Of a DNA stretch of 64,000 nt, positions 7,796 through 54,500 are shown piece after piece. How positions within the stretch are numbered: the first letter of the stretch is position 1; the number at the start of each line of letters is the position of its first letter. This stretch comes from Eledone cirrhosa (Eukaryota). The notes under the pieces were generated by a model, which was given only the letters and a program-made list of their open reading frames with translations, ran no database searches and was not told the origin of the DNA. The translations under genes were made by a program, and so were the position numbers. The stretch lies in assembly GCA_964016885.1 (NCBI GenBank), contig OZ024747.1, positions 79,360,001 to 79,424,000 on the forward strand, in the 5' to 3' direction.

Positions 7796-7906
<111 letters not shown>

Positions 7907-7926
7907 TGTGTGTATATATATATATA

Positions 7927-8126
7927 TAGGAAAAGAGTCAGGACCCCGACGGCTGAGCTCCGGCCGTTTCGACAGCTAGATCCGAACAGTTCGGACCTAG
8001 CTGTCGATACGGCCGGAGCTCAGCCGTCGGGGTCCTGACTCTTTTCCTATTACCCACTCTACTACCCTAAGTATCGAGTACTCTGGTGCGTTATGGTCCG
8101 CCTGGTTCCTTACCCCACTTCCTTCG

Positions 8127-8128
<2 letters not shown>
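7927..8128 (+). mobile_element. Family B fold-back element: palindrome 7927-8049 plus about 80-bp 3' segment, between (TA)n tracts
   Basis: Arms TAGGAAAAGAGTCAGGACCCCGACGG... and ...CCGTCGGGGTCCTGACTCTTTTCCTA; related copies at 15239, 16486, 29611, 29836, 31379 and 54280. Confidence 0.9.
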
Positions 8129-8209
<81 letters not shown>

Positions 8210-8239: not shown

Positions 8240-8434
8240 AATAATAATTGTTTCCACTTTAGGCACAAGGCCAGCAATTACCCAGTGCATTACTGGTACT
8301 TTATTTTATCGACCCCGTAAGGATGAAAGGCAAAGTCAACCTCGGCGGGATTTGAACTCAGATCATAAAGGGACGTAACTATGCTGGAAAGCATGGCGTC
8401 CGACCCTCCACCGATACTGCCAATCCACCGCCCT
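8240..8434 (-). mobile_element. SINE family A, full length
   Basis: Reverse complement reads AGGGCGGTGGATTGGCAGTATCGG...GAGTTCAAATCCCGCC...AAACAATTATTAT. Confidence 0.92.
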
Positions 8435-8951
8435 ACTATCAATATTAATGTTATTGGGCACCCACTGAAGAATTATAAGAGCCCACTTGAATAAGTATCT
8501 GTTGATCTTATACAAGCTTCTACATAAATTGGTAAATTTCACCCAACTTGTAGGAATATTATAATGAAACGAGACGTCCGTCTGGGAAGAGATATATTTG
8601 ATATATCTCATATGAAATAATACAGCCAATTTTCCACACAATACAATTAGTTAGCACCCCGAACGTTTAATTAGGAATATACTCACTTATTTCCTAATGT
8701 TTGTTGAGTAAGTTGGGATTTGGCCGGAGTATCGCTATTAGCTTTCTCCGATAATGTATTTATATATATATATAGAAGTAAGTGACATAGTCACTACTTT
8801 AAAACTGATAGTGTATGGTCTTCTAAATGTGTTTAATTAAACATACTGTATATTGCCAAATATACTATACATACATTCATTAAAAAATATATATATAGTG
8901 AGGTTTTTTTACAAAATGAAAAATAACCGAGGTGTCCTACACGAGTGAAAG

Positions 8952-15238: not shown

Positions 15239-15316
15239 ATTACCCACTCTACTACCCTAAGTATCGAGTACTCTGGTGCGTTATGTTCTACCTGGTTCCT
15301 TACCACACTTCCTTCG

Positions 15317-15318
<2 letters not shown>
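15239..15318 (+). mobile_element. Family B element, 3' segment only
   Basis: ATTACCCACTCTACTACCCTAAG...CCTTCGTTA followed by (TA)n. Confidence 0.88.
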
Positions 15319-16341: not shown

Positions 16342-16750
<409 letters not shown>

Positions 16751-23434: not shown

Positions 23435-23623
23435 AAATTCCGTTTCCGCCCTGCCCCGTCTCCTAAATCTTTCAATTTCCTCTTTAATTTCTCATTATAA
23501 TTTCTGATGAAGGACTAGCGTCCGAAACATTAAGACTCTTTTCCTACTATATCAAGCATAAAACTAATAATATATTTCTTCATTGTACTGTGTCGTTTGC
23601 TTTGTTATTTCCGTTTGCCTTTT
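23435..23623 (+). mobile_element. HHR-bearing element, copy 1 (core 23504-23535, GAAACATT variant)
   Basis: Similar over about 180 bp to 36420-36590; CTGATGA-A-GGAC TAGC GTCC-GAAAC. Confidence 0.75.
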
Positions 23624-24315: not shown

Positions 24316-24508
24316 TAATTGTTTCTACTTTAGGCACAAGGCCAGCAATTATCCCAGTGCATTACTGGTACTTTATTTTATCGACCCCGTAAGGATGAAA
24401 GGCAAAGCTAACCTCGGTGGGATTTGAACTCAGATCGTAAAGGGACGTAACTATGCTGGAAAGCATGGCGTCCGACCCTCTACCGATACTGCCAATCCAC
24501 CGCCCTAT
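24316..24508 (-). mobile_element. SINE family A
   Basis: Near-identical to 8240-8434. Confidence 0.93.
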
Positions 24509-25221
24509 CATGGCGTCCGACCCTCTACCGATACTGCCAATTCACCGCCCTAGCATGGCGTCCGGCCCTCTACCGATACTGCCAATCCACCGCCCTATCA
24601 TGGCGTCCAACTCTCTACCGATACTGCCAACCCACCGCCCTATCATGGCGTCCGACCCTCTACCGATACTGCCAATCCACCGCCCTATCATGGCGTCCGA
24701 CCCTCTACCGATACTGCCAACCCACCGCCCTATCATGGCGTCCGACCCTCTACCGATACTGCCAACCCACCGCCCTATCATGGCGTCCGACCCTCTACCG
24801 ATACTGCCAATCCACCGCCCTATCATGGCGTCCGACCCTCTACCGATACTGCCAACCCACCGCCCTATCATGGCGTCCGACCCTCTACCGATACTGCCAA
24901 TCCACCGCCCTATCATGGCGTCCGACCCTCTACCGATACTGCCAATCCACCGCCCTATCATGGCGTCCAACTCTCTACCGATACTGCCAACCCACCGCCC
25001 TATCATGGCGTCCGACCCTCTACCGATACTGCCAATCCACCGCCCTATCATGGCGTCCAACTCTCTACCGATACTGCCAACCCACCGCCCTATCATGGCG
25101 TCCGACCCTCTACCGATACTGCCAATCCACCGCCCTATCATGGCGTCCGACCCTCTACCGATACTGCCAACCCACCGCCCTATCATGGCGTCCGACCCTC
25201 TACCGATACTGCCAATCCACC
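24464..25221 (-). repeat. 45-bp minisatellite built from the SINE 5' end (about 17 copies)
   Basis: Unit CATGGCGTCCGACCCTCTACCGATACTGCCAATCCACCGCCCTAT equals the A-box-containing head of the adjoining SINE. Confidence 0.95.
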
Positions 25222-29610: not shown

Positions 29611-29794
29611 TAGGAAAAGGTTCAGGACCCCGACGGCAGAACTCAAGCCATTTCGACGGCTATTTCTGGACTCGAAACGGCTTGACCTCTGCCGTCGGGG
29701 TCCTGAACCTTTTCCTATTACCCACTCTACTACCCCAACTATCGAGTACTCTGGTGCGTTATGGTCCACCTGGTTCCTTACCACACTTCCTTCG

Positions 29795-29839
<45 letters not shown>

Positions 29840-30004
29840 AAAAGAGTCAGCGCCCCGACGCCTGAGCTCCGGACGTTTCGACCGCTAGATCTGGAGCTCA
29901 GCCGTCGGGTTCCTGACTCATTTCCTATTACCCACTCGACTACACTAAGTATTGAGTACTCTGGTGCGTTATGGTCCACCTAGTTCCTTACCATCCCCCT
30001 TTTG

Positions 30005-30006
<2 letters not shown>
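29611..30006 (+). mobile_element. Two tandem family B fold-back elements (29611-29796, 29836-30006) separated by (TA)n
   Basis: Each has a TAGGAAAAG...CCTA palindrome followed by the shared 3' segment. Confidence 0.9.
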
Positions 30007-30400: not shown

Positions 30401-30500
<100 letters not shown>

Positions 30501-30581
30501 TGAGGTAGAATCCCGACGGAGTGTCCTGCCGTTTCTAATGATTGCTAGTTTGGTTTCGCAATAGTTTGGTCAGTTAATACG

Positions 30582-30642
<61 letters not shown>

Positions 30643-31124: not shown

Positions 31125-31307
31125 ATAATTGTTTCTACTTTAGGCACAAGGCCAGCAATTACCCAGTGCATTACTGGTACTTTATTTTATCGACCCCGTA
31201 AGGATGAAAGGCAAAGTCAACCTCGGCGGGATTTGAACTCAGATCGTAAAGGGACGTAACTATGCTGGAAAACATGGCGTCCGACCCTCTACCGATACTG
31301 CCAATCC
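31125..31307 (-). mobile_element. SINE family A
   Basis: Matches other young copies. Confidence 0.92.
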
Positions 31308-31378
31308 AAGGAAATAATGTATATATTTTATCAAATGATTCTATGGAATACTTTATTGTGTATATATATATATATATA

Positions 31379-31580
31379 TCGAAGGAAAGGTGGTAAGGAA
31401 CCAGGTGGACCATAACGCACCAAAGTACTCAATACTTAGGGTAGTAGAGGAGGTAATAGGAGTAAGTAAGACCCCGACGGCTGAGCTCAAGCCGTTTCGA
31501 CGGCTAATTCTGTACTGAATGAAAAAGAATTAGCCGTCGAAACGGCTTGAGCTCAGCCGTCGGGGTCTTACTTACTCCTA
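31379..31580 (-). mobile_element. Family B fold-back element (palindrome 31457-31580)
   Basis: TAGGAGTAAGTAAGACCCCGACGG... and ...CCGTCGGGGTCTTACTTACTCCTA. Confidence 0.9.
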
Positions 31581-31641: not shown

Positions 31642-31757
31642 AAGTATGTCCATAGAATCATTTGATAAAATATATATATATATAATTGGGTTGTGCTTAG
31701 TACTACCCTCCATATTTATAATTATATATAAACCATATATAAGTATAAATATTATTC

Positions 31758-31943
31758 TGTGGATTGGCAGTATCGGTAGAGGGTCGGACGCCATGCTTTG
31801 AAGCATAGTTACGTCCCTTTACGGTCTGAGTTCAAATCCTGCCGAGGTCACTTTGCCTTTCATCCTTACGGGCTCGATAAAATAAAGTACCAGTAATGTA
31901 CTGGGTAATTGCTGGCCTTGTGCCAAAAGTAGAAACAATTATT
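31758..31943 (+). mobile_element. SINE family A
   Basis: TGGCAGTATCGG, GAGTTCAAATCC, standard 3' end. Confidence 0.92.
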
Positions 31944-37883: not shown

Positions 37884-37977
37884 ATTAGTCAACCAAATTT
37901 CAACACAGCTAGATTTTCACATTTCATTTCGTATTTTCACAAGTACTTTCGTGTCTTCTAGAACACTCTTCAGATGG
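37884..37977 (-). ncRNA. Left arm of an inverted pair, HHR at 37937-37977
   Basis: Minus strand: CCAT-CTGAAGA-GTGTT CTAGAA GACAC-GAAA-GTAC-TT-GTGA; partner arm at 39602-39683. Confidence 0.7.
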
Positions 37978-54279: not shown

Positions 54280-54283
<4 letters not shown>

Positions 54284-54500
54284 AACGAGTAGAACCCCGA
54301 CGGCTGAGCTCAAGCCGTTTCGACGGCTAATTCTGGACTATTCCAGAATTAGCCGTCGAAACGGCTTGAGCTCAGCCGTCGGGGTCCTACTCGTTCCTAT
54401 TACCCACTCTACTACCCTCAATACTCAAAGTACTCAATACTTTATTGAGTACTTTGGTGCGTTATGGTCCACCTGGTTCCTTACCACATTTCCTTCGTTA
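54280..54500 (+). mobile_element. Family B fold-back element (palindrome 54280-54399)
   Basis: TAGGAACGAGTAGAACCCCGACGG... and ...CCGTCGGGGTCCTACTCGTTCCTA. Confidence 0.9.

Follow-up and report, generated by a model that had tools for sequence, protein, structure and literature searches.

Judged from sequence, the five short palindromic repeats in the window (the whole stretch of 64,000 nucleotides analyzed here, positions 79,360,001 to 79,424,000 of Eledone cirrhosa contig OZ024747.1, assembly GCA_964016885.1) are the shortest insertions of a Hydra-clade Penelope-like element (PLE). We consider it probable that these hairpins arise by double target-priming, run-off at a capped RNA 5' end and end-joining. 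In this mechanism, once a (TA)n target has been cut, its two 3' ends would prime reverse transcription at two fixed RNA sites lying 78 nt apart, both cDNAs would run off the RNA 5' end, likely capped, inside the ribozyme (hammerhead loop II), and the two cDNA ends would be joined head to head, likely by microhomology end-joining. We infer this joining pathway, and likewise the use of one RNA for both primings. Position +1 is the A of the initiator-like motif T[C/T]AGT that lies in loop II of the hammerhead; this places GAAA at +19, the predicted ribozyme cut after +41, the first priming site, where inverted arms end, at +60 (between CCUA and U), and the second, where the tail ends, at about +137 (between CGU and UAU).

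Each hairpin consists, in order, of (TA)n, an inverted arm from TAGG, a tail-bearing arm running to CCTA, a tail and (TA)n. The paired arms lie at 7927-8049, 29611-29717, 29836-29927, 31457-31580 (minus strand) and 54280-54399, which confirms the five palindromes of a preliminary description of this DNA. Copy 1, which belongs to a sister subfamily with its arm end at +62, sits between (TA)n runs at 7799-7928 and 8128-8197; its inverted arm (7927-7987, minus) runs from the fixed CCTA end back to +2, its tail-bearing arm (7988-8049, plus) starts at +1, the A of a TTAGTT initiator-like motif, and holds the hammerhead 3' half, and its 78-nt tail (8050-8127, plus) is the stretch bounded by the two priming sites. 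In copy 2 the inverted arm reaches +1 (29611-29672, minus) and is followed by a shorter tail-bearing arm from +18 (29673-29717, plus) and the tail (29718-29795, plus). Copy 3 has an inverted arm to +5 (29836-29893, minus), a tail-bearing arm from +28/29 that is without GAAA (29894-29927, plus) and a tail at 29928-30005 (plus). Copy 4 comprises a tail (31379-31456, minus), a tail-bearing arm to about -9 (31457-31525, minus) and an inverted arm to +6 (31526-31580, plus), and copy 5 an inverted arm to +1/-1 (54280-54340, minus), a tail-bearing arm from +3 (54342-54399, plus) and a tail with a 21-nt internal duplication (54400-54498, plus). The tail is thus 78 nt in four copies and 99 nt in copy 5, and ends in CCTTCGT. 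Copies 1-3 fall in two sister subfamilies, and predicted folds of the hairpins range from -56 to -123 kcal/mol. TAGG, the reverse complement of CCTA, opens every inverted arm beside (TA)n, and the earlier statement that this arm always stops at a CCTA running into (TA)n was true of all five copies. Of the type I hammerhead the arms contain the 3' half alone, as had been described; this applies generally, but the tail-bearing arm of copy 3 lacks the GAAA and that of copy 2 begins only at +18.

Motif scans recovered two copies of the same family that the preliminary description had missed, a tail-only copy at 15240-15317 (plus) and an un-inverted sixth copy at 16488-16685 (minus). The sixth copy carries a whole type I hammerhead and then the tail, with the core TTGATAA (U3-A8) at 16667-16673, +1 at 16628 and GAAA at 16607-16610, and its MFE fold yields stems I, II and III. 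It is the one copy inside the window of the sources that keep a whole hammerhead with a U3-A8 core and stems I-III. The U3-A8 variant is described for PLEs in the text of PMC4209133. Source copies had been predicted to carry ACCCC-CTGATGA; whole-hammerhead sources do exist, but because their core is the U3-A8 variant and not CTGATGA, a search with the latter misses them. MFE folds of main-subfamily source RNA gave no full hammerhead and no clear tail structure (z -1.4 and -1.1), and Rfam gave no match at gathering score in the window or on one whole source ribozyme. Other repeats in the window include a solo arm of another, rare hammerhead-bearing family at 30498-30584, which lies between TA runs and also ends in CCTA; a genome search returned only 1-2 matches to this family, one of them a partial relative. 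CTGANGA...GAAA hammerhead cores of unrelated repeat families occur at 23504, 36473, 39602, 48001 and 49092 (plus) and at 37973 (minus). A recurring SINE-like repeat, which we take to resemble one common in octopus genomes, is found at 8245-8440, 31125-31310 and 31750-31900, and at 24464-25221 its 3' part is repeated as a 45-nt tandem array.

The parent element was identified in the 3.0-Gb genome of the same species, in which the inverted end has 13,408 exact matches and the tail end 20,114, against none for the reversed control of either. In longer copies the sequence continues on the upstream side with the remainder of the hammerhead, a 3' UTR and a GIY-YIG domain, and an RT ORF follows the tail on the downstream side. 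A 718-aa RT/GIY-YIG ORF is intact within tandem units of 3.53-3.54 kb each; it has RWR at 37, DKT at 117, YRDD, CNCPDRSIC (CxCX5C) at 572 and YIGLT at 606, followed by CNLC (CxxC) at 670 and CKH (CxH) at 698 in the endonuclease domain (EN), which is C-terminal. G[KR][FY] (GxKF/Y) was absent from this ORF in a motif scan. The Pfam GIY-YIG match was below cut-off only (E 0.016-0.025), and the ORF product has 646 homologues. Three loci (L251, L252 and L253), likely the active sources, contain nearly identical arrays in which full 3.53-3.54 kb units with intact ORFs are arranged in tandem. At L197 and L199, copies of the element have as neighbours fragments of older Hydra-like PLE families distinct from this one, and at L198 both arms of a long inverted copy have a LINE-type RT ORF within or next to them.

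The element has the features of EN+ PLEs, namely a single RT plus GIY-YIG ORF, a hammerhead motif in the pLTR, tandem or partial tandem pLTRs, an inverted 5' copy and a tail at one end. Section 11 of PMC8557442 defines the Hydra clade by motifs, C-terminal EN and (TA)n targets, and our element matches it in C-terminal EN, RWR, DKT, CxCX5C, CxxC, CxH and (TA)n, an assignment made by motifs. As that text describes the C-terminal EN+ PLEs of the clade, they share with the element the single RT plus GIY-YIG ORF, RW[K/R], DKT, CxCX5C, the CxxC/CxH of the EN, the lack of GxKF/Y, (TA)n targets and a hammerhead near the 3' end. They differ in being generally <3 kb with a canonical hammerhead, both described there as tendencies, whereas our units measure 3.53-3.54 kb with a U3-A8 core, a long stem II and a 5-bp stem III. 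The N-terminus and ribozyme of Hydra-1_Obim (supplement of PMC8557442), compared by eye as printed, also differ from those of the element, and the element is set apart by its tens of thousands of arms, mostly abortive hairpins. By these comparisons it is a new Hydra-type family. Three other assignments were considered and rejected. The Naiad clade, our first guess, requires an N-terminal GIY-YIG and DKA, whereas here the EN is C-terminal and the motif is DKT. Non-LTR retrozymes require direct tandem units of 170-400 nt with whole hammerheads, whereas these copies are inverted and hold half a ribozyme. A MITE or TIR element does not fit arms that pair within copies, a tail that lies outside the repeat and junctions that vary.

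Evidence for the site at which the cDNAs end comes from the first 91 of the 13,408 matches, in genome order on contig C1, compared with 24 natural long copies. A tail was present within 1.15 kb in 81 of the 91; in 10 rows, internal deletions or decay of the ends called for manual correction. Arm ends were mapped by anchored extension; local alignment over-extends through internal palindromes. In this sample, 60 of the 75 inverted arms that reach +8 end at -6 to +8, as do 51 of 56 tail-bearing arms, and none of the mapped arms ends at -20 to -7. Genome-wide counts of 22-nt windows fell from 36,639 (+8 to +29) to 5,496 (-9 to +13) and 4,525 (-45 to -24). By these counts ~85% of arms stop in the shared zone, an approximate figure since the windows differ in subfamily degeneracy. 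Sister-subfamily arms, scored by eye in the first 30 of 1,186 matches, stopped there in 21 of 23 cases. Un-inverted copies joined straight to (TA)n end in the same zone, so the stop belongs to cDNA synthesis and not to the palindrome. Short-read contigs from four coded runs show a depth step near +1 and loose ends at -4 to +1, at +61 and at the tail end; opposite-strand joints also occur in these contigs, the four runs being from one study and possibly from the assembly's own sample.

From the position of these ends, +1, with a minor site near -4, would be a Pol II transcription start. PLE promoters have been located in the pLTR in the accessible texts of PMC2377424 and PMC3846280. Main subfamilies have a TATA-like box at -29, and no DPE was seen by eye. 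One sister subfamily with a different loop II keeps TTAGTT and is without the TATA-like box, which weighs against the start-site reading. Two further points count against run-off at +1: the stops are spread over 14 nt with many at +2 to +8, so that end trimming would be needed, and the tail-bearing arm of copy 4 reaches -9. Alternatively, double priming may take place on a longer RNA on which stem II/loop II structure or a bound protein is a roadblock, with RT adding a terminal C. The 14-nt spread suits such a block, and the stop lies just past the 3' strand of stem II, at the base of what may be an inner hairpin (GGATAAA/TTTAGTCC). Against it, the sister subfamily with a different loop II and the same initiator-like motif has the same stop, and, once past the zone, arms seldom end within the following 40 nt though they cross the rest of stem II. 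We consider a roadblock unlikely, also in view of the distribution of an extra G and of the length classes described below.

An untemplated G at the 5' junction of a retrotransposon has been read as a copied cap (PMC4859970, in its accessible text), and we would interpret the extra G found at the +1 ends in the same way. Genome-wide, G-AGT was counted 3,378 times and A-AGT 661 times, part of the former being explained by the other arm ending in TTCTG. Read-through copies have 6 G and 8 A at -1, so the G is not a source variant. When both arms of a head-to-head junction end at +1, G was present on both in 6 of 50 and on one in 3 of 50, and A in 2 of 50 (first 50 of 2,325); junctions with G on both arms occur in subfamilies whose -1 is T. 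Hand counts of distinct TA-joined ends gave G at -1 in 14 of 70, in 10 cases as a single letter after (TA)n, and the G was more frequent at +1 (6 of 20) than elsewhere (3 of 39), a borderline difference (Fisher p = 0.05). Enrichment of the G at +1, together with its near absence at +42 (see below), is not what the roadblock reading would give. The hairpin at L243 has a short TA run between its two arms, at the centre and beside the extra G.

Each arm, read from its TA flank, is an antisense cDNA, and both priming sites have a 2-4 nt AU match to the target. The preliminary description had proposed instead that the cDNA snaps back on stem II. In this snap-back, akin to the self-priming proposed in PMC3846280, the cDNA begun at the tail would turn back on itself as template and be extended as far as CCTA. 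Snap-back would account for the near identity of the arms, for arm ends within 5 nt of each other in 36 of 81 copies, for the microhomology at junctions (an overlap of 1-8 nt in 31 of 66 short uncorrected copies, the others having short or templated inserts) and for a few centres on the stem III palindrome (L039, L083 and L093). The inverted arm was, however, more than 20 nt longer than the tail-bearing arm in 20 of 81 copies, the reverse being seen in 4 of 81, an asymmetry inflated because the sample was selected by left arms no shorter than 25 nt. In the window, copies 2 and 3 have such a longer inverted arm. Despite the sampling bias, the existence of one-sided longer inverted arms excludes snap-back, unless all are products of later deletion. 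Solo inverted arms between TA runs, with no tail within 1.5 kb, made up 8 of 30 sister-subfamily copies, and 3 further arms of the 30 also had no tail within that distance. At L196 a 3.6-kb sense copy ends at +60, with CCTA directly followed by (TA)n, and its inverted arm is a 1.2-kb tail-primed piece. Since the inverted arm is often longer, occurs alone and can be full length, we conclude that it is primed on its own. G on both arms, seen even in a zero-loop join of CTC to GAG, also contradicts snap-back.

The position of the hairpin centre points the same way. It had been placed in or at stem II, yet the 5' strand of stem II (about -36 to -31) is missing from the copies, and the apparent pairing of GACGGCTA with TAGCCGTC is that of an arm with its own inverted copy. 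Mapping of the centres put the junctions in loop II, just 5' of the 3' strand of stem II. Taking these points together, we regard snap-back as very unlikely. The claim that insertions are born ribozyme-dead is borne out for short copies, which are without the 5' catalytic half, but fold-back is not the cause: with a start inside the ribozyme, the 5' repeat copy of the RNA would hold only the 3' half, which would leave short copies ribozyme-dead.

Comparison of arms over +19 to +60 (ungapped, 79 copies) showed that the two arms of a copy differ by 0.91 of 42 nt, compared with 2.74 for left-right pairs from different copies and 2.59 for left-left pairs. None of 5000 permutations of arm pairs gave a distance as low as that of own arms, and no column separates left from right arms. 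Two proposals in the preliminary description, that the inverted arm is regenerated at each insertion and that it is copied to a fixed site (CCTA at +60 beside (TA)n), stand, and left arms do not cluster with other left arms, as inherited ends would. The arms do not, as had been thought, share private variants: among variants common to both arms in the 79 copies, 0 were private and 113 were subfamily variants. Of the supposedly private strings, GAAAAG[AG][GT]TCAG has 1,186 matches and GAGTAAGTAA recurs in L241/L242. Gene conversion, offered earlier as the alternative, is not needed, because the shared variants are those of subfamilies. These distances also bear on whether the ~200-bp hairpin is itself a replicating non-autonomous element, SINE- or MITE-like, with inherited inverted ends, for which one could cite the very high copy number and the junction AAATTT in 11 of 50. 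In such an element left arms should group with left arms, which they do not; moreover, most copies have different junctions, junction strings that recur do so in different subfamilies, and no lineage with a long idiosyncratic common junction was seen among the copies retrieved. We find this explanation hardly credible.

Arm lengths are coupled as well. Of the first 100 long arms, 60 are in head-to-head long/long pairs (2 in the control orientation; ~12% expected), giving 30 long inverted pairs spaced 0.1-5.4 kb. That long arms pair with long arms indicates that length class is set once per event, whereas a roadblock would not make it common to both arms. Both primings likely use either the 5'-proximal sites, which would give a short hairpin, or a downstream set on read-through RNA, which would give a long copy; because long arms mostly pair with long arms, long copies would likely come from downstream priming sites on read-through RNA of a tandem source. 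Exceptions are tail/tail insertions and short arms joined to full-length copies (L205). Two loci (L132 and L232) have the tail end on both sides, the second site having served for both target ends; a strict model with one RNA and two sites does not foresee such insertions. At L206 (1312-2033) there is a mini tandem of a 257-nt unit that runs from -3 through the tail to ORF codon 9, with the same junction twice and an inverted +60 arm; it may reflect an RT jump from the RNA 5' end to the 3' end of a short RNA, or a small circle.

LTR-like strand transfer was also considered as the main route to long copies and is not supported: position -1 bears no G scar (6 G and 8 A, as above), no clear subfamily chimera was seen by eye at +1 in 24 long arms (one hybrid), and the pairing of long arms weighs against transfer acting independently on each arm. 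The long inverted pairs could be taken to favour another explanation, in which long inverted repeats are trimmed at the centre after insertion and their arms homogenised by conversion. Long palindromes are unstable. Nevertheless, un-inverted and solo copies stop at the same place, the G is untemplated, no private variants are shared and long pairs persist, all of which make post-insertion trimming very improbable.

A second, minor stop coincides with the predicted cut of the ribozyme. Among 55 distinct TA-joined tail arms starting at about +32 to +46, counted by hand, 22 start exactly at +42, 4 at +41/42 and 3 at +41, a pile-up at +42 with p = 2e-12 against a uniform distribution. An extra G was present at only 1 of the 22 ends, as expected for an uncapped end. 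Ends at +42 are about one-tenth as common as those at +1 (243 and 2,211 redundant matches, respectively). This stop may mark cleavage at the predicted ribozyme cut; stalling at the foot of stem III is a competing explanation, though ends at +41 would then be expected to prevail. The text of PMC11167929 and PMC4209133 covered here contains no in vivo cleavage of PLE hammerheads.

The inverted pLTR with a tail is a known PLE trait. Canonical PLE insertions, as set out in parts of PMC8557442, PMC3846280 and PMC2377424, likewise have a head-to-head inverted copy without tail and a tail at one end, but that tail is 30-40 nt and truncation is variable, whereas here the tail is 78 nt and truncation is fixed at one site. 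Those portions of the literature explain the inverted pLTR by self-priming or by resolution through the EN, and do not invoke double priming with run-off. The closest experimental parallel is Poseidon of Anolis, for which the text of PMC11167929 reports that, in vitro, two internal RT start sites bound the tail and the enzyme cuts and extends both strands. Our element is similar in its two start sites, the use of both target strands and AT-rich targets; that text leaves inverted copies unexplained and has no reads at the ribozyme cut, whereas here ends pile up at +42. In LINE-1 twin priming (PMC4859970, accessible text), too, both target ends prime, an inversion results and full-length 5' ends carry an extra G, but there each cDNA copies its own part of the RNA and the position of the second site varies; in our element both sites are fixed, and the overlap of the cDNAs produces a hairpin. 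Non-LTR retrozymes (bioRxiv 10.64898/2026.07.22.740005, in part) are also short PLE-derived repeats tied to type I hammerheads, but form direct tandem repeats with whole ribozymes, in contrast to these inverted, half-ribozyme dead ends. A search of the open-access literature yielded no paper in which Penelope is linked to any of strong-stop, strand transfer, cap G or twin priming. The combination of double priming, a start inside the ribozyme, a cap-like G, arm coupling and cut ends was not found in the open-access text, including that of PMC13282606, PMC11722881, PMC8969392, the bioRxiv report and the supplement of PMC8557442. What is new here, at the level of sequence, is the shared arm stop at T[C/T]AGT, the cap-like G, the coupling of arms and the ends at the predicted ribozyme cut.

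A wider reading is possible, though we hold it only tentatively and would not expect it to prevail. A PLE RNP dimer might place two RTs on one RNA, staggered by 78 nt, with each end of the double-strand break priming one of them; this would explain the tail, the inverted pLTR and the identity of arms in all EN+ PLEs. The promoter would start inside the hammerhead, so that half a ribozyme would stand at the 5' end of the RNA and a complete one further along it. From the 5'-proximal sites, 'strong-stop' cDNAs like those of LTR elements would arise and mostly go to waste as hairpins, and the 41-nt repeat that separates the cap from the ribozyme cut could act as an R-like transfer site.

For annotation, our results carry a warning: these hairpins, at ~200 bp, would be taken for MITEs or SINEs. 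Their transcription, if it occurs, is predicted to give 35-60 bp dsRNA against the element. The tens of thousands of young insertions record the ends of the reaction at base resolution, and the intact source ORFs in the genome make each step open to an existing in vitro assay. Double priming, if true, would explain the long-puzzling inverted structure of PLEs.
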